A DNA stretch of 64,000 nucleotides. It comes from Potamolinea sp. (GTDB taxonomy: Bacteria; Cyanobacteriota; Cyanobacteriia; Cyanobacteriales; Coleofasciculaceae). Position numbers and translations under genes: made by a program. The DNA is taken from assembly GCA_042408245.1 (NCBI GenBank), contig JAYFMV010000019.1:3511-67510 (forward strand). Direction: 5' to 3'. How positions within the stretch are numbered: position 1 is the stretch's first letter; each line of letters begins with the position of its first letter. Below, piece by piece: positions 4,100 through 30,690 of the stretch. Under the pieces are notes generated by a model. That model was given only the letters and a program-made list of their open reading frames with translations, made no database searches and was not told the DNA's origin.

Positions 4100-5398
<1,299 letters not shown>

Positions 5399-5477
5399 CA
5401 CTAGGGACACAGACAGCTATCTTGTGTCAGAGATTACAATGAAGAAATGTGATGAAACTTTACATTAAATAATTCTT

Positions 5478-6572
5478 ATGTCAATTTTGGCGGCGATCGC
5501 AGTTTTGGCGATTTTGATTGTAGTTCATGAGCTGGGTCACTTTATGGCCGCTCGTCTTCAAGGAATCTACGCCAATCGCTTTTCCTTGGGTTTTGGCCCA
5601 GTTCTCTGGAAATACCAGGGGCCGCAAACCGAATATGCGATTCGTGCATTTCCCCTAGGCGGTTTCGTGGGCTTCCCCGATGATGACCCAGATAGCGAAA
5701 TTCCTCTTAATGACCCGAATTTGTTGCGCAATCGACCGATTTTAGACCGGGCGATCGTCATTAGTGCAGGTGTCATTGCTAACCTAATTTTTGCTTACTT
5801 TCTCCTAGTAACTCAGTCAGCAACCGTAGGTATCCCAGACTTCAACAATGTAGGTGTTTTGGTTCCTCAAATTGCTGCACAAAGCAGTTCTGTGGCACAA
5901 AAAGCAGGTATTCAAGCCGGAGATGTGATCTTAGCCATAGATGGTCAAGATTTGGGTAAGGGATTGAAAGCCACGGATACCCTGAAGAAGACGATTCAGA
6001 AATCTCCAAACCAACCCTTAGAACTGACAATTAAGCGCAATGAACAAAGCTTGTCAGTTCAGGTAAAGCCGGAAGCAGGACAAGACGGCAAAGGTAAAAT
6101 TGGTGTACAGTTGAAACCCAACGGCAAAGTGGTACGCAAGCGGTCAAATATTGTAGAAGCTTTCAGTACCGCAGCCGAAGAATATCAGCGAGTTATTATT
6201 CTGACAGTTCAAGGTTTTGGGCAACTATTGAGTAATTTCGGCGAAACTGCAGAACAGGTTTCTGGCCCTGTAGCGATCGTAGCGATTGGGGCGAATATTG
6301 CTCGTTCAAACCTTGCAGATCTTTTACAGTTTGCCGCCCTGATTAGCATCAACTTGGCGATTATTAATATCTTGCCCTTACCAGCGCTTGATGGTGGTCA
6401 GTTGGCATTTTTGGCAATTGAAGGAGTTTTGGGGAAGCCTTTACCTACTGAAATTCAGCAGAACATTATGCAAACCGGCTTGGTGTTGTTACTGGGTTTA
6501 GGTATTTTCTTGATTATTCGGGATACGGCTAACCTGATTCCTACAAGTTGGGTGCAAAACTTATTCCAGTAA
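5478..6572 (+). CDS. rseP: RIP (site-2) zinc metalloprotease RseP-like with PDZ domain
   Basis: HELGHFMAARL (HExxH) at the N-terminus, a central PDZ domain, and C-terminal LPLPALDGGQ (LDG motif). Confidence 0.9.
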   Translation: MSILAAIAVLAILIVVHELGHFMAARLQGIYANRFSLGFGPVLWKYQGPQTEYAIRAFPLGGFVGFPDDDPDSEIPLNDPNLLRNRPILDRAIVISAGVIANLIFAYFLLVTQSATVGIPDFNNVGVLVPQIAAQSSSVAQKAGIQAGDVILAIDGQDLGKGLKATDTLKKTIQKSPNQPLELTIKRNEQSLSVQVKPEAGQDGKGKIGVQLKPNGKVVRKRSNIVEAFSTAAEEYQRVIILTVQGFGQLLSNFGETAEQVSGPVAIVAIGANIARSNLADLLQFAALISINLAIINILPLPALDGGQLAFLAIEGVLGKPLPTEIQQNIMQTGLVLLLGLGIFLIIRDTANLIPTSWVQNLFQ

Positions 6573-6830
6573 CAAATGTTGTGGGTTGTTGGTTATTTGT
6601 CATTGGTTATTTGTTATTGGTCATTGGTTACAAACAACAAACAACTAACAACAAACAACTAAGCAGGTGAGTGAAAATAAACACAACATGGGCAGGGCGG
6701 GTTTTGAATATAAAATACTGGTTCGTGTCAAGCCTTATCCCTAAACCCGCCCCTACAAATTTATTTGGTTTTTTTTACGCTACCTGCTTAACAACCAACA
6801 ACAAAAAACTAACAACCAATGAGTATTACT
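6573..6830. repeat. inverted heptamer-repeat arms flanking a palindromic hairpin element (PATE/MITE-like, core 6690-6760)
   Basis: The left arm (ttggttatttgtcattggttatttg) and right arm (caaacaacaaacaactaacaa) are inverted. The core hairpin is gggcgggtttTG...ctAAacccgcccctaca. The same core recurs at 45674-45745 next to tnpB. Confidence 0.8.
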
Positions 6831-7559
6831 CGTAAATGGTCAGCAACTGTGCAGAGGGCTTTAGAGATTTTAATTCGCCTCAAGCGACTTTATCCCGAAG
6901 CCCCCTGCACCCTTAACTACGAAACACCCTTTCAGTTACTTGTAGCAACAATTCTCTCAGCTCAATGTACCGATGAACGGGTAAATCAGGTAACCCCAGC
7001 ATTATTCCTACGCTTTCCAGATGCGATCGCCTTGGCTTCGGCCAATGTCGAAGAAATAGAGAACTTGGTACGTTCCACCGGCTTCTATCGCAACAAAGCG
7101 AAAAATATTCAAGGTGCTTCTCGCATGATTATGGCTGAGTTTGGCGGTGAAGTACCCCAACGTATGGAAGAACTACTAAAGTTGCCAGGAGTCGCCCGTA
7201 AGACAGCCAACGTGGTGCTGGCCCATGCTTATGACATTCACCAGGGCGTTACAGTAGATACCCACGTGAAGCGCCTCAGCAAGCTCCTAGGCTTAACAGA
7301 ATACGAAGACCCGATTCGCATTGAGCGAGATTTGATGAGACTTTTGCCTCAACCAGAATGGGAAAATTGGTCAATCAGACTGGTATATCACGGTAGGGCG
7401 ATTTGTAAAGCCAGGAAACCAGAATGCTATGCTTGTTTACTTGCCGATTTATGTCCGAGTGCTGATCTGCCTGGGTTAATGCCTGCGGAAGCAGGGATTG
7501 TGGAATCGAGTGTTACTGCAACAGCCTCTAATTCAGTAGTAATGAGTTCCGAGTCCTGA
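6819..7559 (+). CDS. nth: endonuclease III (DNA glycosylase/AP lyase)
   Basis: FQLLVATILSAQCTDERVN motif, helix-hairpin-helix, and a C-terminal 4-Cys cluster (CxxxxxxC..C..C). Confidence 0.9.
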   Translation: MSITRKWSATVQRALEILIRLKRLYPEAPCTLNYETPFQLLVATILSAQCTDERVNQVTPALFLRFPDAIALASANVEEIENLVRSTGFYRNKAKNIQGASRMIMAEFGGEVPQRMEELLKLPGVARKTANVVLAHAYDIHQGVTVDTHVKRLSKLLGLTEYEDPIRIERDLMRLLPQPEWENWSIRLVYHGRAICKARKPECYACLLADLCPSADLPGLMPAEAGIVESSVTATASNSVVMSSES

Positions 7560-7684
7560 CTTTTAAGTATAAGCTCACAAACTCACAAGAACTTTTGACT
7601 GAGAATTGAGGAGTGATCACTAACTTTGTGGCAATCAGATAAGATAAAAAACGGTGTCTTTGTTTAGGAAACCTTGAGGGATTA

Positions 7685-7987
7685 ATGGCTAAGAAAGGAA
7701 TGATCGAGCGCGAGAAAAATCGCCAAAGACTTGTGGATAAGTACGCTGAAAAGCGGGCACTCCTGAAAGAGGAGTTTGAAAATGCCACAACTCAACGCGA
7801 GAAATTAGAAGCGCACCGGAGACTGCAACAGTTACCCCGCAACAGCGCACCAACCCGTTTGCGGAATCGTTGCTGGGTTACAGGCCGTCCTCGCGGTTAC
7901 TACCGGGATTTTGGATTATCTCGCCACGTACTGCGGGAATGGGCACATAAAGGACTACTCCCAGGGGTTGTTAAATCTAGTTGGTAG
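7685..7987 (+). CDS. rpsN: 30S ribosomal protein S14
   Basis: 100 aa: [20 protein letters not shown]...[19 protein letters not shown]. Confidence 0.95.
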
Positions 7988-7997
7988 TTACTTAGTT

Positions 7998-8042
7998 TTT
8001 AGTCATTAGTCACTCGAAAGCTGACCAATGACTAATGACTAA
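7998..8042. terminator. bidirectional hairpin between convergent genes
   Basis: agtcattagtca...tgactaatgact, a stem of about 12 bp lying between the rpsN stop and the 3' end of the minus gene. Confidence 0.55.
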
Positions 8043-8371
8043 TTACCACAGCAGCGGTCAATGCCAAGGCTTTCTAAAAGTAAATCGCTGACAGCATTGG
8101 CGATCGCAAATTCGCTGAAGAAACTCTCTCGAAAGTCAAAAGCCTGCATCTCTGTCACAATAGCAATCACTAGCGAACCAAGGTCATTTTCCCCTTCCAT
8201 GCGCTGGCGAACAAAAATTTGAGCTGCCCTTTGGGCAATCTGTTGATTAACGGCTTCAGGAATAAACTCTTGATCGAGCCACTTGGCAAGAGTATCTCGC
8301 AACCATTCACCCTCCTGCTGGGCATTTTGAGCAGGGGGAAGTGTGAGCGGTCCAATAGGTTCATTCATGGG
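8039..8371 (-). CDS. conserved hypothetical protein (start taken at internal MNEPIGP)
   Basis: The ORF extends to 8509, but the first 46 codons are low-complexity and overlap a long palindrome. No known family. Confidence 0.45.
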   Translation of the reverse strand, partial: PMNEPIGPLTLPPAQNAQQEGEWLRDTLAKWLDQEFIPEAVNQQIAQRAAQIFVRQRMEGENDLGSLVIAIVTEMQAFDFRESFFSEFAIANAVSDLLLESLGIDRCCGN

Positions 8372-8537
8372 GCAAGTTAACTTTATAGCTCTGTTGTAAA
8401 TTATTTTAAGTGCGACTGGACTACCTGTACTCAGATTCAGTTTGTTATTGGTTATTGGTTGAGAGAAGAGTGTTGATTCCCTTGGAAACAACAAACAACA
8501 AACAACCAATAACTAACAATCCCAGAGTTGTAGACGA

Positions 8538-9113
8538 ATGGCATTTGACATTCCTTCCCTGATCCAGGGGTACGCCCAAGGCTACTTCCTGATGGCAGAT
8601 GAAAGCGGCGATTTAGGTTGGTATTCCAGCCGTCAGCGAGCGGTAATTCCCCTAGATGATCGGTTTCGCTATCCCAAGTCTCTGACTCGCTTCTTGAATC
8701 AAGAACGTTTTAGCGTCGCTATAAATCGGGACTTCAAAGCTGTGATTGCTGGTTGTGCTGACAGGGAAACGACCTGGATTTCCCCGAAGCTTTTGGAAAT
8801 TTATTGGGCGCTTTATAAAGCCGGTTGGGCCTATAGCTTTGAAACTTGGCAGGGTGACGAGTTGGCGGGGGGAATTTTAGGAATTGTTATTGGCGGAGCC
8901 TTCATTGGCGAATCTATGTTCTATCGGATTCCTGAAGGCTCAAAAGTGGCGATGGTTAAATTAGTTGAACGATTGCGCGATCGCAATTTTCTCTTGTTTG
9001 ACGCCCAAATGACAAACCCGCACTTAGAGCGCTTTGGTGCTTATATGATTGATCAACAGCAGTATCAAGCATTGCTACAAGAATCATTGCAGCGCGAATG
9101 TTACCTGGATTAA
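8538..9113 (+). CDS. aat: leucyl/phenylalanyl-tRNA--protein transferase
   Basis: 191 aa: [11 protein letters not shown]...[19 protein letters not shown]-like L/F-transferase signature. Confidence 0.85.
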
Positions 9114-9280
9114 AACTCTGAAACTAGGGTTGCTCAACAGCAAAAGTGCCACTCGACCTATAAAGAGAAGACTTCCCCCCAGTTTTCTGTACAAAAGGAT
9201 AGGTTAGTCATTCGGAAATCTTTTAAGATAAACATCTACCGTTATTAATAAGTTTCCAAACTTAATCGTTATGGGAGCGA

Positions 9281-10096
9281 GTGCATTGTATGTTGAAGTC
9301 TTGGCTAATTGATTTACATCGTCTTTGGTCAAATCCAGTTCACCTGAACCAGTCTCTTGCCCAAAAACAACTAGCTAGATTAAGTTTATTGTCGGTTTTA
9401 GGTTTTACAGGCGTTAGCTGGTTCACCACTGCGACTTTCGTCCCCCAACGTGCCGAAGCTTACACAGCAAATGTTCAAATTGCTCTCAACCGTCAGTCTA
9501 GCGAAACTTTTACAACCTTTTTGCGCCGAGCCGATGCAGTTGCTAGAGCCGCAACCCAACGCAGCTTTGATCGCGATATTTTGGTGACAGATGTGGTTGT
9601 GACTGTTGTTGGTCAAAATGAAGGTGCGATCGCGCCTATTTTGGGGATAAAAGTCAACCGTAGAGCTTGGAGTAGTAGACCCGATGTTCAGCGTTGGGCT
9701 ACTTACTACCCAAATACCCAAGCGCTGCTGAGAATTGACGACTCTAAGGTAGAAATTCTAGCGCCACCACCAACCCCAACCCCAACCCCAACCCCAACCC
9801 CAACACCCCAACCAACAGCACCAAGTCAGACTGGTACGGGTCCGATAGACCTCAACATTCCAGGTGCACCGATCCGACTTATACCGACAGCACCTCGACA
9901 AAACGCCCCCGGTGCTACTAACAATCAAGCACCGACCAACGCACCACGATCTAACCAGCCTGCATCTCCCGGCGCTCGCAACAATCAGACACCAACAAAC
10001 ACCCCACGTCCAGCCCAAGCGGCTCCAAGTCCTGGTAACAATCAAGCACCAACAAACGCGCCGCGTCCGAATACTCCTGCACCTACAGGCGAATAA
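9281..10096 (+). CDS. hypothetical protein with (PT)n linker and NNQAPTNAPR-type C-terminal repeats
   Basis: 271 aa. N-terminal hydrophobic segment. (CCAACC)n hexamer DNA repeats at 9768-9810 encode PTPTPTPTPTPTP. Three antisense shadow ORFs on this segment were rejected. Confidence 0.5.
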   Translation: MHCMLKSWLIDLHRLWSNPVHLNQSLAQKQLARLSLLSVLGFTGVSWFTTATFVPQRAEAYTANVQIALNRQSSETFTTFLRRADAVARAATQRSFDRDILVTDVVVTVVGQNEGAIAPILGIKVNRRAWSSRPDVQRWATYYPNTQALLRIDDSKVEILAPPPTPTPTPTPTPTPQPTAPSQTGTGPIDLNIPGAPIRLIPTAPRQNAPGATNNQAPTNAPRSNQPASPGARNNQTPTNTPRPAQAAPSPGNNQAPTNAPRPNTPAPTGE

Positions 10097-18915: not shown

Positions 18916-19160
18916 TCAGTTGTCAGTTGTCAGTTGTCAGTTGTCAGTTGTACAGCCCTACGGGCATGAAAAACGGTTGTCAGTTGTTATTTGTTGGTTG
19001 TGTAGGGGCGTAGCATTTGCTCCCAAATATTTAGGTATTACCGACCATCTAACAATCGCTTTTGCTACGCCCTTCCTGTCAGTGATCAGTGCTTCTGATT
19101 ATCAATTACCAATTACCAATTACCAATTACCAATTACCAATTACCAATTACCAATTACCT
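18915..19160. repeat. heptamer arrays (CAGTTGT)x5 and (CAATTAC)x8 plus the inverted copy of the 35-bp element seen at 17701-17735
   Basis: Direct reading. ttgtacagccctacgggcatgaaaaacggttgtcagttg (18943-18981) is the reverse complement of aaccgttttcatgcctgtagggctgtacaact (17697-17728). Confidence 0.85.
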
Positions 19161-22100
19161 GTTTTGAGCGAGACTTTGATTAATTTGCTCTAATAATTCG
19201 CTCATGGATTGGGAAGAACCTCGGAGAACTTTGGTAGCGAGGGTTTTTAACAGTGCATCTAGGCCAGAATTTGATTTTCTATTGTTAGTTTTACCTTGCT
19301 TTAAATGCGATGCTTTTGATGTCGCTATCGCTTCTCGAATGCTATCGCTATCTAATCGATGATCTAGCACAAGTATGGGTGGTAGCGTTTGCAGTCCAGT
19401 CAGAGAAAGCAGTTCATTCACCAGTGTTGAAGAGTCGTTAATATCTCTTAAACGAATCACCAGTAAGTCAACGCTTTGTTCTTGAAGTTGACGGTATACT
19501 TCTGTCCAAGAAGACGAAAGTAAGCTTCTAAAGCCAGCAGTTTGGAGGTATTGTATGAAAGCTGGGAGCCAGGAGGCTTGAGAAGTCGGGGTTGTGGAAA
19601 TTTTCGAGCTATCCCCTTCTCCCTGAGCACTCTCCCCAATAACCAAGGAGGGTTGAGGACATTGGGGAATTACCTCAGCTTTCTGGGTGCTGCGTTCTCC
19701 AATGTCCATCACAAGAATGCTGGGCTTGCTGGTCATCCCCACGGCAACTTGAATCACTTGCAATAAGGCAGGCATCTTGGAAGTGCGATCTGATGTTAAA
19801 CAAGGATATACAGTTAGTCCAGTGAGTTGATTTGCCGCCTCTGTTGTCTGGCGATCTAGCGTTACCAGTGGTAAAGAAGTCAAGGCCTTATAGAAGGAGA
19901 ACTCTTCCAAGAAGTTTAGGGGATCGGCAATTTCTACAGTGTCTAGTAAGATGACATCTGGACGCCAAATACGGCTCAATAATTCTGCCTGATCTAAATC
20001 ATCAGCTTCGAGTAATCGGTAATTGAGTTCTGAGTGCTGAACACTTAGGAATTCAGTGAATTCAGAACTGAGTATGGATGAATGAAAGCGCGTATCATCC
20101 CCAACTGGACAGAGGTGGAGAATTGTCAGATTGCTGCTAGTGGGAGGTGAGCTATCGCATAAACAATTCAGATTATGTAATAAGGCTTTTTCTTGCACTG
20201 GTAAGTTTAAGAAGCCATCAGCTTTGTGATGATAAGCCTGTTGTTTTTCTGCCTGTGTTGCTGTTACTAAGACGGGAATATGAAGAGTTTGGGCATCGGA
20301 TTTGAGTACTGTTAAGACATCCCAGCCGGAAAGTTGGGGTAAAAGAGGATTGAGTAAAATTGCACAGGGTTGGAAGCGGCGGGCTTTTTCGATCGCCTCT
20401 GTACCTGATCGAGCAATGATCACTCGATAGCCGAAACTCCTCAGTTGTTCCGTCAAACCTTCCAAATAGCGGGGTACAGTTTCAACAATTAACACCAAAC
20501 GGTTGTGGATGGAGCATTGAGGATTGGGGATTGGGATTTGGGTAATCTCGCCGTCCTCTTCTGAGTTTCCACTTGCTTGAGGAGGACAAGGTGGTAAGAG
20601 AAGGGTAAATTGACTTCCTTCACCTATTTTGGAAATAAAAGAAACATCGCCACCGTGTAAACGAGCAAGGCGTTGAGTTAAGACCAATCCTAAACCTGTT
20701 CCTTCAAAGCGACGGGTGAGGGGTTTTTCCAACTGTTGAAATTTCTGAAAAATCAAGTGCTGTTGCTCCGTTGGGATGCCAATGCCAGTATCCCAGACAG
20801 TGAAAGCAATCCAGCCTTCCCAACGACTGACTCTCAGACCTATTTCACCTCCCTCCTCTGTAAACTTGAGAGCATTAGAAAGTAGGTGCATCAACATTTG
20901 GCGCAGACGCAACTCATCGGCTACAAGAGTTTCTAGTCCCGGTTCGATCTCTAGGGTAAATTTTATTTCCTCTGGGGATTCTTCGTCTTGTGGCTCTTTT
21001 TCTGAGGGTCGTTGTAGCGCTTGAGAATAGGCGCGATCGCATACAGCCTGAACCTGCACCGGCTCCAAAGTCAGTTCCATCTGACCTGTTTCCATGCGAG
21101 TTAAATCCAGGATATCGTTGACCACGGCCATTAGCTGACGCCCACTTTGATAAATCAGTTTGGCATAGCGAGCTTGGCGATCATTTAGTTTCCCTAATGT
21201 CTGATCTTTCAGGAGCGTTGATAAACCCAAAACAGCAGTAAGAGGCGTCTTAAGTTCGTGGCTAATACAAGCTAAAAACTCATCTTTCAGTCGATTTAGT
21301 TGTACTAAATCGGCATTTTTTGCTGTCAATTCTTGGGCAACCTGTTGCTGTTCCGTGGTGTCTTGAGCTAGCACTAACCACAGATTAGTTGTTGGCGATT
21401 GGGAAGATTGATAGGAATTTGTCGAGGAATTTTCCCCAATTTCGTAGGATAGTTGTCCCGCCTGTCCTATCCAGTCTCTCTCTTTTAAAATAGACTTCGG
21501 CAGGGGAATTTTCACAAAAGAGAAGACGCGATCGATGCCATTTTTTCGCATTTCTGAAGCTGGTACGAAAGCCTCCCAAGCAGTTGGAGAATCTTGGAAG
21601 TTGAGCAGCGGTGGTTCTTCTAGGAGCGATCGCAATTGAGAAACCGTTGCAGCCATGCGGGGGGTATCAAGGGCACAGTAGCGTTCTCTAGCAGCTTGAG
21701 CAACAGGTTGATACTGCTGTTTTGTAACATTTCTCAGAGGATTGGGCGATGTCCTTCGGACAGGCTTCGTCAACCGAGAAGCGTAGGCTTCACCCAATCG
21801 CCCCACAGAAGCAGTCGCGGCGTTTTGTTGTTGTACACTGCTAGATTGGGTTGATTGCAGCTCACGCGCTGGAGCATCTAACCCAGGAGCAGGACTAAAT
21901 CTAATACAGCCCAGATTAGGCGATGTCCCAATCAGAGTCCGCCAAGTGAGATTTTCAGCCAGTATTTGCCCCGTAGAGGTTTGTATGCTTAGGGGTAAAG
22001 GCAGTTGTTCTAACAGTGGGACTAAAGAATTGAGCATCGCTGGTTCCGGTTCTTCCAGAGTACTCGCACCCACATCAGTTGCTGTTAGTTTTGGTGCCAA

Positions 22101-22622
22101 GGATTTTAAGAGCAAGCAAATGTTGAGCATTCCCTGAAACTTTCCTTCCCCATCTACCAAGGCCCAGTTCTCAGCAATAAGCCTTGGAGAGTGGGAAGAT
22201 GCGTCCATCCTTTTGCTTTCTTCCTCCCTAGTTGCCAATCCCCATTGCCCTTGATCTACTTCAGTCAGTCTCTCTCCAGACTTTTGTAAATATGCCCAGA
22301 ACTGTTCTAATTTCAGCTTTTCTGGTAGGATTACCAAAGGTTCAAGGAGCGGCGGATCTAGCTCAGAAAGAGGCTGGTGGAAATCAACAGAGGCGATCGC
22401 CACAGGAGTTTTCCCGTCATCAGCCGCTGGGAGCAGATAGGGCATTACCTGTCGCAGGTTGACCAATCCCAAGGGACGCTGCTGTTCGCTTACTACAACA
22501 ATTGCGTCACTCCCTGAAGACCTAAAAATCTCCAGCACGTCAGCGATACCACAAGTTGGTTCACAAACAGGAATGGCTTGAGCAAATTCTTTTAAGCTGG
22601 GAGTTGGCATTAACATGACCAT
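19155..22622 (-). CDS. multidomain hybrid sensor histidine kinase with three degenerate (pseudo-)receiver domains
   Basis: HisKA H-box EFLACISHELKTPLTAV and HATPase_c (G-box GTGLGLVLTQ). Three CheY-like folds follow in which the phospho-Asp position is not conserved, e.g. AILLNPLLPQLSGWD. Divergently transcribed from kaiA. Confidence 0.8.
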   Translation of the reverse strand: MVMLMPTPSLKEFAQAIPVCEPTCGIADVLEIFRSSGSDAIVVVSEQQRPLGLVNLRQVMPYLLPAADDGKTPVAIASVDFHQPLSELDPPLLEPLVILPEKLKLEQFWAYLQKSGERLTEVDQGQWGLATREEESKRMDASSHSPRLIAENWALVDGEGKFQGMLNICLLLKSLAPKLTATDVGASTLEEPEPAMLNSLVPLLEQLPLPLSIQTSTGQILAENLTWRTLIGTSPNLGCIRFSPAPGLDAPARELQSTQSSSVQQQNAATASVGRLGEAYASRLTKPVRRTSPNPLRNVTKQQYQPVAQAARERYCALDTPRMAATVSQLRSLLEEPPLLNFQDSPTAWEAFVPASEMRKNGIDRVFSFVKIPLPKSILKERDWIGQAGQLSYEIGENSSTNSYQSSQSPTTNLWLVLAQDTTEQQQVAQELTAKNADLVQLNRLKDEFLACISHELKTPLTAVLGLSTLLKDQTLGKLNDRQARYAKLIYQSGRQLMAVVNDILDLTRMETGQMELTLEPVQVQAVCDRAYSQALQRPSEKEPQDEESPEEIKFTLEIEPGLETLVADELRLRQMLMHLLSNALKFTEEGGEIGLRVSRWEGWIAFTVWDTGIGIPTEQQHLIFQKFQQLEKPLTRRFEGTGLGLVLTQRLARLHGGDVSFISKIGEGSQFTLLLPPCPPQASGNSEEDGEITQIPIPNPQCSIHNRLVLIVETVPRYLEGLTEQLRSFGYRVIIARSGTEAIEKARRFQPCAILLNPLLPQLSGWDVLTVLKSDAQTLHIPVLVTATQAEKQQAYHHKADGFLNLPVQEKALLHNLNCLCDSSPPTSSNLTILHLCPVGDDTRFHSSILSSEFTEFLSVQHSELNYRLLEADDLDQAELLSRIWRPDVILLDTVEIADPLNFLEEFSFYKALTSLPLVTLDRQTTEAANQLTGLTVYPCLTSDRTSKMPALLQVIQVAVGMTSKPSILVMDIGERSTQKAEVIPQCPQPSLVIGESAQGEGDSSKISTTPTSQASWLPAFIQYLQTAGFRSLLSSSWTEVYRQLQEQSVDLLVIRLRDINDSSTLVNELLSLTGLQTLPPILVLDHRLDSDSIREAIATSKASHLKQGKTNNRKSNSGLDALLKTLATKVLRGSSQSMSELLEQINQSLAQNR

Positions 22623-22935: not shown

Positions 22936-23853
22936 TTGCATCCCCAACTGACTATCTGTACGTTTGTGCCTTCCGAATCCCTGACTCAGTCGTTGAGTCA
23001 GTTTTTGAGCAGCGAACGCTATATCTTGCACATCACTGTTTCAGAATCCGAGTTTTTCGAGTTTGTGGATCGACACAAGCAGCAGCTTGATTGTTTGGTT
23101 GTACAGGATGAACACTCATTATTGCCAGTACTCAACCGACTATACGAGCAAGGAACGCTGCTACCTGTTGTAATTTTTCCCCAGGAATTGGTAGAAGTCA
23201 CGTCTTGCGTTGCTAGCAATCAAGAGATCGAAACCAGTCAGACGCTGAATGAGGCCGAGGTGGCCAAATTAAATCATCTGTTCCATGCCGCTGAAGTCCG
23301 AGTCAATACTACCCAATTGCCTGAGATTAGGAGCTTTATTGAAAAAGCGATCGCTCAGTTTGTCTCTCTTTCTCCGGCCTATACCTTTCCCGATTGGTCT
23401 ACCACTGTCGAGCGCCAAACCGATCTGACCCCTAATAGTTTCCTCATCCAGCAGCAGTACCGATTATCTGAAAAACTCAAGGAAAGACTTGGATACCTGG
23501 GTGTGTATTACAAAAGAAATTCCCAGCTTTTTTTACGTAATCTAGCTCCAAAGCAAAGAGAAAAGCTTTTAGAAAAATTAAAATTCGGGTATCGTCAGAT
23601 CGTTTTAAAGTATTTTTCTCAAGAAGATTCCCTTAATCAACAAATCGATAGCTTTGTCGAGCAAGCATTTTTTGCTGATATTCCAGTCTCTAGGGTTGTG
23701 GAAATCCATATGGAACTAATGGAAGAATTCGCCAAGCAGTTGAAGCTAGAAGGGAGAAGCGAGGAGGTGTTACTAGATTATCGACTGACCCTGATCGATG
23801 TTATTGCTCACCTGGGCGAAATGTATCGACGGTCTATCCCTAGAGAGTTATAA
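22936..23853 (+). CDS. kaiA: circadian clock protein KaiA (full length, with N-terminal pseudo-receiver)
   Basis: The N-terminus is colinear with Synechococcus KaiA: LTICTFVPSESL vs IAICIWVESTAI, and KQQLDCLVV vs RDQIDCLIL. C-terminal HMELMEEFAKQLKLEG..LIDVIAHLGE. Gene order kaiA-kaiB-kaiC. Confidence 0.85.
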   Translation: MHPQLTICTFVPSESLTQSLSQFLSSERYILHITVSESEFFEFVDRHKQQLDCLVVQDEHSLLPVLNRLYEQGTLLPVVIFPQELVEVTSCVASNQEIETSQTLNEAEVAKLNHLFHAAEVRVNTTQLPEIRSFIEKAIAQFVSLSPAYTFPDWSTTVERQTDLTPNSFLIQQQYRLSEKLKERLGYLGVYYKRNSQLFLRNLAPKQREKLLEKLKFGYRQIVLKYFSQEDSLNQQIDSFVEQAFFADIPVSRVVEIHMELMEEFAKQLKLEGRSEEVLLDYRLTLIDVIAHLGEMYRRSIPREL

Positions 23854-23992
23854 TACAAACCTTTAGCTATCAGCTTTTAGCGCTAAGCTTGAAGAAAGCT
23901 CTTAAATTTACCTAGTTTTTGAGTTGATTTTCGGATGACCTTGTATTCTTAACCTGTATACTTGCTGATTGCTTATAGCAACTTACAAAATT

Positions 23993-24307
23993 ATGAGTCC
24001 GTTAAAAAAAACTTATGTTCTCAAGCTTTATGTAGCTGGAAACACTCCCCACTCTATTAACGCTTTGAAAACACTTAAAAACATCCTAGAACAAGAATTT
24101 CAAGGAGTTTACGCCCTAAAAGTGATTGATGTCCTAAAAAGCCCACAGCTAGCTGAGGAAGACAAAATCTTGGCTACACCAACTTTGTCCAAAGTCTTAC
24201 CTCCACCTGTCCGAAAAATCATTGGTGACCTTTCGGACAGGGAAAAAGTTTTGATAGGCTTAGATCTTCTTTATGAAGAACTGCGAGAAGAGGAATTAGA
24301 TTTTTAG
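23993..24307 (+). CDS. kaiB: circadian clock protein KaiB
   Basis: [49 protein letters not shown] is near-identical to KaiB. The upstream in-frame M at 23969 is unlikely to be the start. Confidence 0.95.
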
Positions 24308-24386
24308 TTAAACGTCCAAGACTATAGTAGAGTAGCCTTGAATATTCTAGTCAAACCATTGGGTCTGATTAGAGAAAAAACTTTTT

Positions 24387-25964
24387 TTGACAATAACAGA
24401 AAACATGAATCAATCTAAAAAAACTGAACAAAAGCCTGACACTTTAACATCGGTAGGAGTCCATAAAATAAGGACGATGATCGAAGGTTTCGATGATATT
24501 AGTCATGGAGGTTTACCGATTGGGCGCACCACCATCGTCAGCGGAACATCTGGCACCGGAAAAACGCTGTTAGCGATTCAGTTTCTCTATAACGGAATTG
24601 CCTATTTTGATGAGCCTGGTGTATTTGTAACTTTTGAAGAATCTCCCACAGATATCATTAAAAATGCTTACAGTTTTGGTTGGGATTTACAACAATTAGT
24701 TAATGATGGCAAGCTATTTATTTTAGATGCCTCACCAGATCCAGAAGGACAAGAAGTTGTCGGAAACTTTGACCTTTCTGCCTTAATTGAACGCATTCAA
24801 TACGCCATTCGTAAATATAAAGCCAAGCGAGTTTCTGTTGATTCAATTACTGCAATCTTTCAACAATACGATGCTGCTTCAGTAGTAAGAAGAGAGATTT
24901 TTCGCTTAGTTGCACGTCTCAAACAAATTGGCGTGACAACAGTAATGACAACAGAAAGAGTTGAGGAATATGGTCCAGTAGCCAGATTTGGAGTGGAAGA
25001 ATTTGTCTCCGATAATGTGGCAATTGTTCGTAACGTCCTAGAAGGGGAACGTCGTCGTCGTACCATAGAAATTCTCAAGCTGCGTGGTACAACCCACATG
25101 AAGGGCGAATACCCTTTTACTATGACTAACCAGGGTATTAATATCTTCCCGTTAGGAGCAATGCGCTTGACTCAGCGTTCTTCCAATGTTCGCGTATCTT
25201 CAGGTGTTGAAACTCTTGATAAAATGTGCGGTGGTGGTTTTTTCAAAGATTCAATTATTCTGGCAACTGGTGCTACTGGTACTGGCAAAACTTTGCTGGT
25301 TAGTAAGTTTATCGAAAATGCTTGCTCGCGAGGCGATCGCGCTATTCTTTTTGCCTATGAAGAATCTCGCGCTCAGTTGTCTCGTAATGCTTATTCCTGG
25401 GGTATTGATTTTGAGGAAATGGAACAAAATGGTCTACTAAAAATCCTTTGCACTTACCCAGAATCATCAGGACTAGAAGACCATTTACAAATTATTAAAT
25501 CGGAAATTGCTGAATTTAAGCCTTCTCGAATTGCGATAGATTCCCTTTCTGCTTTAGCGCGAGGAGTTAGTAATAACGCTTTCCGGCAATTTGTGATTGG
25601 CGTTACTGGTTATGCAAAACAAGAAGAAATTACGGGATTTTTCACTAATACTACTGACCAGTTTATGGGGTCTAATTCAATTACAGATTCTCATATTTCC
25701 ACGATTACTGACACAATTTTGATGCTGCAATACGTGGAAATTCGCGGAGAAATGGCTCGTGCTATCAACGTTTTCAAAATGCGTGGTTCTTGGCACGATA
25801 CAGGTATTCGTGAGTACACTATTAGTGAAGATGGGCCAGATATCAAGGATTCATTCCGCAACTACGAAAGAATTATCAGTGGTTCTCCCACTCGTATTCC
25901 TGTGGATGAAAAGAGCGAACTTTCCCGAATTGTTCGAGGTGTACGCGAAAAATTAGAGGAATAA
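24387..25964 (+). CDS. kaiC: circadian clock protein KaiC
   Basis: Duplicated RecA-like domains, Walker A GTSGTGKT and GATGTGKT, C-terminus SFRNYERIISGSPTRIPVDEKSELSRIV. Colinear with S. elongatus KaiC along its length. Confidence 0.97.
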   Translation: MTITENMNQSKKTEQKPDTLTSVGVHKIRTMIEGFDDISHGGLPIGRTTIVSGTSGTGKTLLAIQFLYNGIAYFDEPGVFVTFEESPTDIIKNAYSFGWDLQQLVNDGKLFILDASPDPEGQEVVGNFDLSALIERIQYAIRKYKAKRVSVDSITAIFQQYDAASVVRREIFRLVARLKQIGVTTVMTTERVEEYGPVARFGVEEFVSDNVAIVRNVLEGERRRRTIEILKLRGTTHMKGEYPFTMTNQGINIFPLGAMRLTQRSSNVRVSSGVETLDKMCGGGFFKDSIILATGATGTGKTLLVSKFIENACSRGDRAILFAYEESRAQLSRNAYSWGIDFEEMEQNGLLKILCTYPESSGLEDHLQIIKSEIAEFKPSRIAIDSLSALARGVSNNAFRQFVIGVTGYAKQEEITGFFTNTTDQFMGSNSITDSHISTITDTILMLQYVEIRGEMARAINVFKMRGSWHDTGIREYTISEDGPDIKDSFRNYERIISGSPTRIPVDEKSELSRIVRGVREKLEE

Positions 25965-26089
25965 TTTCCTACTTCCGGGAAGCCAGTACATTGATCTTCC
26001 TGAACTGTTAAAACGTCTACACCTCGCATACGCAACCCAGCAGTAATTGCTCGGTGTATGTGTTCATCCATGTAGAAAGCTAGACTCAC
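25862..26089 (-). pseudogene. DUF5615 (PIN-like/Mut7-C) fragment, probable truncated toxin remnant
   Basis: The first ~35 codons (MDEHIHRAITAGLRMRGVDVLTVQED) match DUF5615. The remainder runs antisense into the kaiC 3' end with no family similarity. It is immediately downstream of its usual partner DUF433. Confidence 0.4.
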
Positions 26090-26430
26090 TTCAATAGTCC
26101 CTGTGTCCGTAGTCTAACAACAAAAGGAGATTCGCCTGCTTCTTTGCATAACTTTTGGGCATATTCTCCTCGTCGCTGGATATCTAGATCAAGTTCCTCT
26201 TTGTTATCCCAGTAATAAGCTAATGCTGAATAAATTTGGCTCATTGTTAAATAGGGATGTTGAAATTGTAACTCTTCAGGACTCCAACCATAGGCGATTT
26301 GAGCCATTACTAATTCAACTACTTTCATCGTAGTTCCAGCAATGATTGGGACATTACCTTCATTCAGTTGTACATATTTATGGGGAGTCGTTATAGATGT
26401 CATTATTATCTGTCTGATTTGATTCCTCAA
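26086..26430 (-). CDS. DUF433 domain protein (antitoxin-like partner of DUF5615)
   Basis: 114-aa ORF with a DUF433-like core. Its stop overlaps the DUF5615 start. Confidence 0.65.
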   Translation of the reverse strand: MRNQIRQIIMTSITTPHKYVQLNEGNVPIIAGTTMKVVELVMAQIAYGWSPEELQFQHPYLTMSQIYSALAYYWDNKEELDLDIQRRGEYAQKLCKEAGESPFVVRLRTQGLLK

Positions 26431-26471: not shown

Positions 26472-26768
26472 TTAGTTTCGCAAAATATACTGACTAATAA
26501 CTTCTTTAAGTTCTTGAGGTGCTTCAATGGCTATAGCTGCTCCCAAATCAGGACGCACAACCCACCACCAAACTAAGGTTTCCATCTGATTGGGTGGCTC
26601 TTCATTGGGACACCATTCGATAGACGATTCATTCACGCCAATAATATTGGCACACAGGTCATTGGCGATGGTGACACGTTCATCAAGTTGCTCAAACTGT
26701 ATGATGTCTTGCCACTCAACTTGATTGGGAATTGAATTTAAAATTGATTGTACGTCTATGGTAAGCAT
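26472..26768 (-). CDS. small acidic protein, candidate immunity protein for the upstream nuclease
   Basis: 98 aa. Its start overlaps the nuclease stop as TAATG, indicating translational coupling. No recognisable family. Confidence 0.45.
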   Translation of the reverse strand: MLTIDVQSILNSIPNQVEWQDIIQFEQLDERVTIANDLCANIIGVNESSIEWCPNEEPPNQMETLVWWWVVRPDLGAAIAIEAPQELKEVISQYILRN

Positions 26769-27178
26769 TAAACTATACCTCCAAAAGCTTTAATAACTCT
26801 CATACCAAAGTCTTGTTGTTCTTCAAAAGATTGAGTACTCAGCCATTCTCTAACCGTGATATTTGTTGATTCAGTTAGATTAGGTTGTACAGAGTTGTAG
26901 AAGTTGGTGATTTCCTGATGAATTGAACCTTTTCCATGTGCAAGTCGGACGAGATTACCTGTATTATGAATGGCTTCAACTCCAAATCTTTGTAGATTTG
27001 AGGTAGTTTGCCCGACAATATGATGCCAAGCTTGTCCTGTACCAGCAGCACCCATTGTTCTTTTAAATTCACCAAATGTTTTAAAGCCTTGACCAGACCT
27101 TTTAGGGGGAATTACTGCTCTTAATTCTAGTTCTCTAGCCAGTTGTCTAGCTATCTCCTGTCTGGTTTCGTCTGTCAC
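26768..27178 (-). CDS. standalone HNH/EndoVII-fold nuclease of the WHH type (polymorphic-toxin-like module)
   Basis: GQAWHHIVGQ...GVEAIHNTGNLVRLAHGKGSIH, i.e. W-H-H, then N and a distal H in HNH spacing. GTG start, with a TAA stop directly upstream in frame. Confidence 0.6.
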   Translation of the reverse strand: MTDETRQEIARQLARELELRAVIPPKRSGQGFKTFGEFKRTMGAAGTGQAWHHIVGQTTSNLQRFGVEAIHNTGNLVRLAHGKGSIHQEITNFYNSVQPNLTESTNITVREWLSTQSFEEQQDFGMRVIKAFGGIV

Positions 27179-27236
27179 TTATGTTGGTTTGATGGCACGG
27201 CTCCATTTTAATCATATCTTTTACGGTGATTGGGTT

Positions 27237-28865
27237 TTAAAAAGGGCGATTATCACGCAGAATTTGCAGATTCTTACGGATGGTAACAGTATTGGGATGA
27301 TTTGTTCCTAATCTTCGTTGGGCAATCTCTAAAGCTTGCAGATACAAAGGTTCAGCTTCAGTGTAGCGTCCTTGAGATTTGTAGAGACCTGCCAAGTTGT
27401 TGAGACTGGTAGCGACAGCGGGATGGTCTTCTCCCAGAAGGCGTTTTGTCAACTCTAAAGCTTGCAGATACAAAGGTTCAGCTTCAGTGTAGCGTCCTTG
27501 AGAATTGTAGAGACCTGCCAAGTTGTTGAGACTGGTAGCGACAGCGGGATGGTCTTCTCCCAGAAGGCGTTTTGTCAACTCTAAAGCTTGCAGATACAAA
27601 GGTTCAGCTTCACTGTAGCGTCCTTGAGATTCGTAGAGTGCTGCCAAATTGTTGAGACTGGTAGCGACATTGGGATGGTCTTCTCCCAGAAGGCGTTTCC
27701 ACAACTCTAAAGCTTGCAGATACAAAGGTTCAGCTTCAGTGTAGCGTCCTTGAGATTTGTAGAGGTATGCCAAGTTGTTGAGACTGGAAGCGACATCGGG
27801 ATGGTCTTCTCCCAGAAGGCGTTTGGTCAACTCTAAAGCTTGCAGATACAAAGGTTCAGCTTCAGTGTAGCGTCCTTGAGATTTGTAGAGGTATGCCAAG
27901 TTGTTGAGACTGGAAGCGACATCGGGATGGTCTTCTCCCAGAAGGCGTTTGGTCAACTCTAAAGCTTGCAGATACAAAGGTTCAGCTTCAGTGTAGCGTC
28001 CTTGAGAATTGTAGAGACCTGCCAAGTTGTTGAGACTGGTAGCTAAATCCTCCTCTAAACCAAACTCTTTTTGTAAATCAATTGCTTTGCCAAGATACTG
28101 GATTGCTAGAATTTGTTCCTGCTGATAATCCTGCGATTCTCCCTGGTCTAATCTTTTTTTATAAATGCTTCCCATTCTGAAATAAAAATCCGCCAAACTA
28201 GGGTCTTTTTTCCCCCTTTGCTGTTCAATTTTTCTAATTAATTCCTGCAAGTCTTTTAGGGGTATCAACGAAGTGCCATCTTCATCTGTACCCAAGAATT
28301 TCTGTTCTTCTGGAGTCAAGCGTAAGTCAGTAAATTCTTTCCTTAAAACTGCACTTCTCTTTTTAGAAGCAAACCGAAAAACACCCTTGCGCCAACTCCA
28401 AAAATCCAGAGCTTTTTTACTCAAACTTGCCTGAATTTGATTCGTCATCCAGATCACAATTGGAAAAGGAAACTCTCGCATTCCTTCCCGCGTCCACTGT
28501 AAATAACCGAAAAAAAGATCTTGCTCTGAGCGTTTTTCACCAAGTTTCAAAAAGTAAAACTGCTCGATACCCGTCACCGTCAAAACCGCTTGTCCACCCT
28601 GACGCAGATACTCATCTTTTGCCACTAACTCAGCAATAGCCGCCCTCAGACTAGGTTCCCTGCGTGCTAATGTTACCCGATAGGGACGCATCTCTGGCTG
28701 CAATTCTGCCTCATATCGTTGAATTATCTGCTCACGGAAATCAAGCTGATCACATACTGCAATCAACAAGCTCAACTTTCCCTGACTTGCTTCAATTGAA
28801 ACCAGCAAATCATCATAACTATCTTCATTTTGATCTGTCGTATCTGGGAAAGATTGAGTGTCCAT
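27237..28865 (-). CDS. TPR (kinesin-light-chain type, TPR_10/12) repeat protein with uncharacterised 280-aa N-terminal domain
   Basis: Six near-identical 42-aa repeats LNNLAxLYxSQGRYTEAEPLYLQALELTKRLLGEDHP. The start ATG abuts the upstream ATPase stop (TAAATG). Confidence 0.8.
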   Translation of the reverse strand: MDTQSFPDTTDQNEDSYDDLLVSIEASQGKLSLLIAVCDQLDFREQIIQRYEAELQPEMRPYRVTLARREPSLRAAIAELVAKDEYLRQGGQAVLTVTGIEQFYFLKLGEKRSEQDLFFGYLQWTREGMREFPFPIVIWMTNQIQASLSKKALDFWSWRKGVFRFASKKRSAVLRKEFTDLRLTPEEQKFLGTDEDGTSLIPLKDLQELIRKIEQQRGKKDPSLADFYFRMGSIYKKRLDQGESQDYQQEQILAIQYLGKAIDLQKEFGLEEDLATSLNNLAGLYNSQGRYTEAEPLYLQALELTKRLLGEDHPDVASSLNNLAYLYKSQGRYTEAEPLYLQALELTKRLLGEDHPDVASSLNNLAYLYKSQGRYTEAEPLYLQALELWKRLLGEDHPNVATSLNNLAALYESQGRYSEAEPLYLQALELTKRLLGEDHPAVATSLNNLAGLYNSQGRYTEAEPLYLQALELTKRLLGEDHPAVATSLNNLAGLYKSQGRYTEAEPLYLQALEIAQRRLGTNHPNTVTIRKNLQILRDNRPF

Positions 28866-30222: not shown

Positions 30223-30690
30223 GAAGTCCGACACCCTCAAGGGTGCGGCTACCTGAACAAAGTCCGCCTGCGCGGACTAAATGCCCAAGACTTGTGATAG
30301 CCTGCGTAGGCAGGCTTGGTTCCTGTAGCCCCAGGCTTAAGCCTGCGGGGCTTTTGAGCAACTAAATGCCGAACAATGGTGATCTAAGCCCGACACCCTC
30401 AAGGGTGCGGAACCACACGAACAAAGTCCGCCTGCGCGGACTAAATGCCCAAGACTTGTGATAGCCTGCGTAGGCAGGCTTGGTTCCTGTAGCCCCAGGC
30501 TTAAGCCTGCGGGGCTTTTGAGCAACTAAATGCCGAACAATGGTGATCTAAGCCCGACACCCTCAAGGGTGCGGAACCACACGAACAAAGTCCGCCTGCG
30601 CGGACTAAATGCCCAAGACTTGTGATAGCCTGCGTAGGCAGGCTTGGTTCCTGTAGCCCCAGGCTTCAGCCTGCGGGACTTTGATGAGAA
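30223..30690. repeat. three tandem copies of a ~163-bp unit rich in internal hairpins
   Basis: Units start at 30223, 30386 and 30550. Copies 2 and 3 are near-identical. Internal palindromes include caccctcaagggtg, gtccgcctgcgcggac, agcctgcgtaggcaggct and caggcttaagcctg. The last copy overlaps the final 8 codons of the MVP homolog. Confidence 0.9.

Follow-up and report, generated by a model that had tools for sequence, protein, structure and literature searches.

On the minus strand of a stretch of 64,000 nucleotides from Potamolinea sp., which is called the window here, two small overlapping genes encode a basic and an acidic protein. Taken together they are probably an autonomous toxin-immunity cassette with a toxin of the His-Me type, which would act within the cell as an addiction, stress or abortive-infection module. 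Going by its sequence relatives, the toxin is a free-standing copy of a widespread, uncatalogued C-terminal domain of polymorphic toxins. Cassettes of toxin and immunity genes are already well known, and so are toxin modules which stand alone and toxins of the HNH-like kind (PMC3482391, PMC3113570). New are the two families, both of which are uncatalogued, the existence of a large toxin family which has no solved structural neighbour, and the swap of the immunity protein in the cyanobacterial clade.

An earlier note on the sequence of the window had described a free-standing open reading frame of 136 codons with a GTG start and an acidic one of 98 codons joined to it by a TAATG overlap, and both were found as described (Table 1), on the minus strand, which the note had not named. 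The junction reads GGT ATA GTT TAA TG, the last A of the stop codon being the A of the ATG at base 26768. The acidic partner contains 16 aspartates and glutamates as compared to 4 lysines and arginines. The toxin is identical to MFB8788232.1, a 'hypothetical protein U7123_05135 [Potamolinea sp.]' from a metagenome-assembled genome (MAG), and the partner is identical to the 'hypothetical protein' U7123_05130 of the same Potamolinea sp. MAG. The GTG start is correct because the homologues begin at the same position (M/V-TDETR, encoded with ATG in Microcoleus and with GTG in other genera) and because an in-frame TAA lies directly 5' of the GTG in the window. Therefore no delivery domain has been severed from the toxin reading frame, a loss for which the note had recommended to search. 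Residues 1–24 of the toxin form a helix which is confined to the cyanobacterial clade, and residues ~25–135 make up the shared toxin domain. A second copy of the cassette was not found within the 64-kb window.

The cassette was surveyed in 40 other loci of filamentous cyanobacteria, 39 of them with enough sequence to judge the partner. In all 39 the partner gene is located directly 3' of the toxin gene and on the same strand, with the TAATG overlap or an ATGA variant of it. For each of the two proteins about 100 clusters of homologues were found with 70–95% identity, nearly all of equal length and all annotated as hypothetical, in Coleofasciculus, Microcoleus, Nostoc, Anabaena, Scytonema, Brasilonema, Okeania, Tychonema, Trichormus, and others. 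Pairwise comparison of the window with ten loci from different genera yielded ratios of nonsynonymous to synonymous substitution rates (dN/dS) of 0.08–0.18 for the toxin and of 0.10–0.20 for the partner. Both genes are under purifying selection, and because of these ratios (0.08–0.20 taken together) and the numerous homologue clusters both are real genes rather than chance open reading frames.

When the window was compared to the other cyanobacterial loci by blastn, homology was limited to positions 26472 to ~27225. It begins at most ~45 nucleotides 5' of the toxin start codon and stops at the stop codon of the partner, and the DNA flanking the cassette on either side is unrelated between the loci. 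The conserved unit is a two-gene cassette of ~0.75 kb, probably an autonomous one, with a short leader of its own and a probable promoter. When 16 loci from different genera were aligned, the final ~45 nucleotides before the start codon proved to be kept, together with a TAnnAT box located ~32–38 nucleotides before it, and the sequences are unrelated further upstream. This box may be read as the cassette's own −10 element; the number of sites which the promoter scan reported in the leader region was no higher than in shuffled sequence. The neighbours of the cassette vary by genus and include genes for a DUF11/RTX/lipase protein, PfkB, a zeta-like kinase, Uma2, DUF433, and STAND NTPases. One Microcoleus genome holds three cassettes (loci L010, L025, and L027), and in another locus (L026) two copies are found on one contig 4 kb apart. 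No inverted or direct repeats flank the cassette, no DNA match to it was found on plasmids, and no protein match in phage genomes; viral contigs contained five distant relatives alone (36–44% identity) and not the cyanobacterial cassette. Because the synonymous divergence (dS) between members from different orders is 0.5–2, it is suggested that the cassette has spread horizontally rather than by ancient vertical descent.

The two genes decay differently. Premature in-frame stops interrupt eight of the 40 toxin genes (loci L008, L010, L013, L014, L020, L033, L036, and L037), three more have suffered internal deletions or truncations (L038, L039, and L040), and the start codon is altered in another three (GTC in L012, and L016 and L030). 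The reading frame of the partner, in contrast, is intact in all 39 loci, with an ATG start and a length of 97–107 amino acids. At least 11 of 40 broken toxins as compared to 0 of 39 broken partners corresponds to a Fisher p of 4e-4. Loss of the toxin is thus tolerated and loss of the partner is not, which is the asymmetry expected of a toxin/antidote pair. The earlier note had proposed a toxin/immunity pair, and the coupling in 39 of 39 loci, the intact partners and the broken toxins all speak in favour of it; to judge from this comparative evidence the pair behaves as toxin and antidote, the larger protein being presumably the toxic one. An identical allele with a stop at Q30 was observed in Microcoleus anatoxicus PTRS2 and in an Oscillatoriales MAG, which are two independent assemblies.

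A search of 1.84 billion representative proteins with a profile of the toxin family returned 2231 clusters (defined at 50% identity) with E<=1e-3, 1505 of them with E<=1e-10. Among the 150 matches listed, the region corresponding to query residues ~25–135 lies at the extreme C-terminus in almost every case, in proteins of 140–2800 amino acids. The long ones carry RHS repeats, TcdB_toxin_midN, SpvB, DUF6443, and DUF6531, and two shorter ones contain the PT-HINT pre-toxin domain. Genomic matches outside the cyanobacteria terminate reading frames of up to ~2530 amino acids in Myxococcota, Bacteroidota, Clostridia, Planctomycetota, Chloroflexota, Gammaproteobacteria, and others, and a version of 558 amino acids carrying the domain is encoded on a Priestia plasmid. 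The family therefore occupies the tips of polymorphic toxins, just as the note had expected of the relatives of this protein, and the protein of the window is itself free-standing. Scans of Pfam, NCBIfam, PADLOC, and PHROGs returned no match for the toxin or for the partner. One further relative from a Logan assembly (P0235, 328 amino acids) begins with an N-terminal helix of the cyanobacterial type and the toxin domain, both within residues 1–130, and continues with an extension of ~200 amino acids which has no Pfam match and may be a different partner or another domain that was fused to the toxin.

This kinship raises the question of whether the cassette could be an extracellular weapon or a reserve of weapons, the small toxin being exported, or kept as an orphan module for recombination into a full-length toxin. 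It would then leave the cell by an unrecognised export route, by lysis, or by docking to a carrier via its N-terminal helix, and would kill competitors which lack the partner. The overwhelming occurrence of the domain at the tips of secreted polymorphic toxins is in line with such a use, and PMC3482391 describes, for polymorphic toxin systems, standalone toxin-coding cassettes which undergo recombination with full-length toxins. Small free-standing forms occur outside the cyanobacteria as well, in Ralstonia GMI1000 (149 amino acids, beside an integrase) and in two more loci (L055 and L056), and the clade-specific helix of residues 1–24 has no assigned role. All 40 cyanobacterial loci, however, contain the short form alone, with an in-frame stop 0–11 codons 5' of its start, and no full-length toxin bearing this tip was found among the cyanobacterial loci retrieved. 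As DNA homology ends ~45 nucleotides upstream, there is no common upstream segment for recombination. A signal peptide is absent from the toxin, and its cyanobacterial neighbours do not include recurrent secretion genes. Finally, toxin and partner are each conserved between loci with 70–90% identity and are not diversifying as pairs of weapon and immunity protein usually do. Such a role is thus considered unlikely. The Ralstonia relative is encoded at 4860..5677 of its locus (L080, R. pseudosolanacearum GMI1000 megaplasmid, 100.2–101.0 kb). It has LHH in the place of WHH (ELHHIVEQ), overlaps a reading frame of 123 amino acids which looks HEAT-like by eye, and adjoins an apparent tyrosine-recombinase gene.

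Outside the cyanobacteria the gene next to the toxin is a different one. In 33 of 39 non-cyanobacterial loci a small gene for a DUF2019/HEAT-like protein follows immediately 3' of the toxin tip on the same strand, often with an overlap of four nucleotides. These proteins are helical, have ~115 amino acids, and match DUF2019 and HEAT_2 weakly, one of them at the gathering score. No relevant literature was found on DUF2019 as an immunity protein. The 98 amino acid partner was compared to this family as a possible member of it and proved to be unrelated. It is predicted to have an α/β fold, for which the fold search gave weak KH-like matches alone, and neither family scans nor fold search detected a DNA-binding domain in it. 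On the basis of these sequence comparisons the immunity family was exchanged in the cyanobacterial clade, from a HEAT-like to a small α/β protein. In one Clostridia MAG (L073, 10356..10754) a DMP19-like gene (PF14300, E = 2.5e-12) replaces the HEAT-like one downstream of the tip. DMP19 is a DNA-mimic protein, and such a partner would fit a toxin which binds DNA.

Conservation of residues was examined in two alignments of the toxin family, A1 with 26 and A2 with 77 sequences. The tryptophan and the two histidines of the WHH tripeptide (W51, H52, and H53) as well as asparagine 75 proved to be invariant in both. Histidine 87 is invariant in A1 and found in at least 90% of A2, histidine 81 is present in most sequences and deleted in one sub-clade, and Y94, S96, R110, and W112 are nearly invariant. 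The W-H-H, N and H residues to which the note had drawn attention are thus present and conserved. An AlphaFold2 model of the toxin, with a predicted local distance difference test score (pLDDT) of 94.9, contains just two strands of three or more residues, 49–53 (AWHHI) and 76–80 (LVRLA), followed by a helix from 86 to 94. Strand, strand and helix follow each other as in a ββα-metal site, in which a histidine ends the first strand, an asparagine lies at the second and a metal-ligand histidine or asparagine lies in the helix after it; in the model a helical insert separates the two strands. A Foldseek search with the model gave nothing at E<1, and single-sequence and profile searches of the sequences in the PDB gave nothing relevant. 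Because of their small size, cores of the ββα-metal type score poorly in global fold searches. In the Pfam scan of the 77 relatives and their consensus no match to WHH, AHH, LHH, or SHH was obtained, and two of the 77 showed a weak match to HNH_2 (E = 0.063). Profile comparison with hhalign placed AWHHIVEQT on YDVDHIVPQS of the Cas9 HNH domain with a nonsignificant E of 0.12; in these nonsignificant alignments the WHH segment falls on the catalytic D839-H840 of Cas9 and on the HH of the colicin DNases. The weak alignments all share one register, and none is significant. From the motif and the predicted topology an HNH fold appears plausible, and a derived His-Me finger nuclease is on balance the most likely chemistry of the toxin. 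The motif GFK(S/T)FxxFKRxxG in residues 31–41 of the toxin (~27056–27088 of the window) resembles FKSFDDFRKAV, residues 46–57 of the colicin E9 DNase. This helix, which precedes HH...N...H in both proteins, was the sole segment of the colicin DNases aligned by hhalign (P ~5e-4 to 3e-3).

The note had gone further and assigned the toxin to the WHH clade by its spacing, recommending a comparison with PF14414, and this assignment did not hold. A bona fide member of Tox-WHH should have the WHH tripeptide, which is nearly invariant on the first strand of the treble-clef in that family (PMC3113570), and the window protein and its relatives do have it, on predicted strand 49–53 and at the tips of polymorphic toxins. 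The tripeptide is not strictly kept, however, since the distant Ralstonia relative has leucine instead of tryptophan. The full signature of Tox-WHH is WHH, L, H, HxG, with immunity proteins of the Imm-SUKH, Imm28, or Imm37 type (PMC3482391 Table 2), and two conserved histidines are associated with its helix (PMC3482391 Table 2; PMC3113570). Here, one invariant histidine is found in the helix, H87 is followed by QEI or AKI and not by xG, and HH and the second strand are ~22 residues apart, with helical inserts in between. None of the immunity genes is a SUKH, Imm28, or Imm37 gene, the partner being without Pfam match and the genes downstream of the relatives being DUF2019/HEAT-like or DMP19-like. 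The PF14414 model was matched neither by the protein (E<=1 in one scan and E<=10 in another) nor by the 77 relatives, the consensus or its core (E<=10); similarly, PF14412 (AHH) gave no match for the protein, the relatives or the consensus. Membership in Tox-WHH is thus very unlikely.

It has also to be considered that the toxin might have another fold and chemistry altogether, for example that of a metal-independent RNase with histidine and arginine in the active site, with WHH...N...H being a mere resemblance. No HNH family gives a significant profile match, the conserved residues Q57, N61, Y94, S96, R110, and Q121 are not explained by an HNH model, and TseN shows that a DNase toxin can be mostly helical, have a small sheet and adopt a 'distinct fold' (PMC12574953). 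On the other hand, the invariant residues of the toxin are located on strand, strand and helix in exactly the order of ββα-metal nucleases, their signature equals that of Tox-AHH apart from the first residue, and every weak alignment chooses the same register. The pairing of one relative with a homologue of the DNA mimic DMP19 (L073) would also fit a DNase. A toxin outside the His-Me group is therefore regarded as somewhat unlikely.

For a derived His-Me finger toxin the following mode of action may be proposed. The cassette would be transcribed from its own promoter, and toxin and antidote, being translationally coupled, would be made in roughly equal amounts. The acidic partner would bind the basic toxin and block it in the producing cell. 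Most likely the toxin would be a His-Me finger (HNH/EndoVII-like) nuclease which depends on a metal. In this nuclease H53 on the first strand could serve as the general base, H52 and H87, with or without H81, could hold the metal, and N75 could brace the hairpin. Working inside the cell, the cassette would be a selfish addiction module or a stress or abortive-infection toxin-antitoxin module which spreads horizontally, and less likely a secreted weapon. An intracellular module is favoured because signal peptide, delivery domain, a conserved secretion neighbour and a long cyanobacterial homologue are all lacking, and because the cassette is scattered, sometimes present in several copies, often located beside genes resembling toxin-antitoxin genes, and decays on the toxin side. 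As a tentative possibility, it might represent a new addiction or abortive-infection family, in which a captured toxin tip was combined with a newly recruited immunity fold and spread horizontally in filamentous cyanobacteria, the toxin having a new nuclease fold or being a very derived His-Me finger.

Several points weigh against an intracellular cassette with a His-Me toxin. No HNH-type family of Pfam is matched significantly, which leaves the HNH assignment without statistical support, and one invariant histidine is found in the helix as compared to two in the WHH, AHH, and ColE7 families. When the toxin profile was aligned to colicin DNases by hhalign, the FKSFxxF(K/R)xA helix alone was aligned, with a probability of 11–33%, and the co-linear alignment of HH, N and H had a P of 0.36. 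Classical autoregulation as in type II systems is not evident because the partner shows no DNA-binding domain. Some of the toxin pseudogenes come from draft genomes and MAGs, yet the Q30 stop recurs in two assemblies made independently. The intracellular role is deduced from missing delivery features, and export by an unrecognised route would be compatible with these. Gene structure, conservation, the boundaries of the cassette, kinship with the tips of polymorphic toxins, exchange of the immunity family and asymmetric decay were observed directly, and we infer toxicity, neutralization by binding, nuclease chemistry, the roles of the single residues, promoter function and the intracellular role from comparison of sequences and models.

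Table 1. Positions of the cassette, its candidate functional elements and the genes adjoining it upstream in the window.
Feature	Position	Strand	Remarks
Toxin gene, 136 amino acids	26768..27178	minus	GTG start, pI 9.3 (9.29)
Partner (immunity/antidote) gene, 98 amino acids	26472..26768	minus	ATG start, pI 4.05, WWWVVRPDLGAAIA core conserved
W51-H52-H53 codons, candidate catalytic dyad	27020..27028	minus	predicted strand 49–53; invariant
N75 codon	26954-26956	minus	just before predicted strand 76–80; candidate Asn
H81 codon	26936-26938	minus	loop before helix; candidate metal-ligand His
H87 codon	26918-26920	minus	start of predicted helix 86–94; candidate metal-ligand His
Leader and putative promoter	27179..27240	minus	promoter scan and 16-locus alignment
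−35-like TTAAAA	27240-27235	minus	promoter scan
−10-like TATGAT	27216-27211	minus	promoter scan; matches conserved TAnnAT box
TPR protein gene, 542 amino acids	27237..28865	minus	N-terminal domain of ~250 amino acids without assignment, and TPR_10/12 repeats
P-loop ATPase gene, 428 amino acids	28866..30152	minus	AAA_16/KAP; weak Sll1717-family, VakA, PifA matches

Directly upstream of the toxin and on the same strand lie the genes for a P-loop ATPase and a TPR protein, an adjacency which the earlier note had correctly reported. It had also offered the idea that the pair could be the effector module of these genes, the ATPase and the TPR protein acting as sensor or switch as in NTPase-based defence systems. 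The arrangement is suggestive of this, as the stop of the ATPase gene and the start of the TPR gene abut and the toxin begins 58 nucleotides downstream, and the ATPase weakly matches the defence-associated P-loop families KAP, AAA_16, VakA, and PifA. An NB-ARC/TPR protein is encoded upstream of the cassette on the same strand in a Coleofasciculus locus, too (L001). A tblastn search of the 40 other cyanobacterial loci with the ATPase and the N-terminal 255 amino acids of the TPR protein, however, found a homologue of either one in none of them. The cassette has its own conserved leader, DNA homology stops ~45 nucleotides upstream and thus before the TPR gene, and the neighbours elsewhere (DUF11/RTX protein, PfkB, Uma2, and DUF433) are unrelated. 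The Coleofasciculus gene (6381..9362) is a fused NB-ARC-TPR gene of different architecture ~640 nucleotides upstream of the cassette, and genes of the STAND/TPR kind abound in these genomes; adjacency of a TPR gene is a weak signal because the repeat family is common to many genes. The effector reading was therefore rejected as a general explanation and is most improbable. The ATPase and the TPR gene may be a split STAND-like system in their own right.

The TPR part of the 542 amino acid protein is encoded by tandem repeats of 126 nucleotides at 27281–27784. Another NB-ARC/TPR STAND gene is found in the window at 33801..35801 on the minus strand, and the C-terminal TPR units of this gene and of the Coleofasciculus gene share ~76% DNA identity with the TPR protein next to the cassette. 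Another pair of small, overlapping genes adjoins the cassette downstream, at 25862..26430 on the minus strand, and looks like a toxin-antitoxin pair. It encodes a DUF433 protein (114 amino acids, E = 1e-8) and a weakly DUF5615-like protein (75 amino acids, E = 0.027) which is possibly truncated; DUF433 genes occur near the cassette in ~10 other loci, too. Just upstream of the ATPase and TPR genes a homologue of the eukaryotic major vault protein (MVP) with 889 amino acids is encoded at 30666..33335 on the minus strand, with Pfam matches to Vault repeats (E = 1e-60), the MVP shoulder (E = 6e-52), and Vault_2/3/4. To our knowledge bacterial MVP homologues are rare. Shortly before the cassette in window numbering, the plus strand contains a complete kaiA-kaiB-kaiC circadian clock cluster at 22936..25964 (Pfam KaiA_N/KaiA, KaiB, and KaiC), and on the strand opposite to it a reading frame of 1155 amino acids at 19155..22622 was taken for a hybrid histidine kinase by reading the sequence alone.

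If confirmed, these findings would give names to two families which are now mere 'hypothetical proteins'. The first would be a toxin domain which polymorphic toxins, Rhs toxins among them, use in phyla such as Myxococcota, Bacteroidota, Bacillota, Pseudomonadota, and Planctomycetota; the second would be an antidote specific to cyanobacteria. The cassette would also be a clear case in which a domain of secreted weapons came to serve in a free-standing cassette inside the cell while the immunity family was exchanged completely, which would be useful for understanding how immunity specificity evolves. Its practical value would be modest, consisting of a better annotation of toxin and immunity genes and of a compact cyanobacterial pair of nuclease and inhibitor, for example for counter-selection tools. 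The cassette would mark variable genome regions rich in toxin-antitoxin genes; it opens no long-standing question.

Among the known systems, Tox-AHH (PF14412), with the signature [AG]HH, N, H, H, Y (PMC3482391 Table 2), appears to be the nearest to the toxin family. The signature WHH, N75, H81, H87, Y94 resembles it more closely than that of Tox-WHH, with xHH, N, H, H and Y in the same order and the histidine corresponding to H81 in most sequences, and both families are found at the tips of Rhs and HINT-type toxins with a small immunity gene next to them. Tox-AHH differs in having alanine or glycine in front of HH where the toxin family has tryptophan or leucine, in its hidden Markov model, which the toxin family does not match, and in its immunity proteins, which are Imm-PA2201, Imm-ank, Imm11, and others as compared to DUF2019/HEAT-like proteins or the new 98 amino acid family; the cyanobacterial form is in addition free-standing. 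Tox-WHH (PF14414) shares WHH on the first strand and the use as a polymorphic-toxin tip. It differs in its unmatched model, in the 'L, H, HxG' part of its signature, which is absent from the toxin family, in the long helical insert between the strands found here, in its immunity families, and in its reported distribution, which does not include cyanobacteria.

The DNases of colicins E9 and E7 and of pyocins (PF21431) with their Im proteins likewise pair a basic toxin, of the HNH type which is probable for the cassette, with a small and very acidic immunity protein whose gene follows directly, and an F-K-S-F-x-x-F-(K/R)-x-A helix precedes HH...N...H in these DNases as in the toxin family. Profile-profile comparison over the core is not significant, however, the spacing is different, and the second histidine of the helix is absent from the toxin described here. 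Im proteins have a four-helix fold, whereas the partner is predicted to be α/β with weak KH-like matches. Unlike the colicins, the toxin of the cassette has neither receptor-binding nor translocation domains. Type II toxin-antitoxin modules are two-gene operons whose antidote binds and neutralizes the toxin and is usually also a DNA-binding autorepressor. The chromosomal ones resemble the cassette in consisting of two small overlapping genes with their own promoter, which is putative here, in their scattered contexts near toxin-antitoxin-like genes (DUF433 and Uma2), sometimes in several copies, and in a toxin which is often inactivated while the antidote is kept. The cassette differs in that the toxin is encoded ahead of the antidote, no DNA-binding domain is recognisable in the antidote, and the toxin would have been drawn from the repertoire of polymorphic toxins rather than from the classical type II toxin families.

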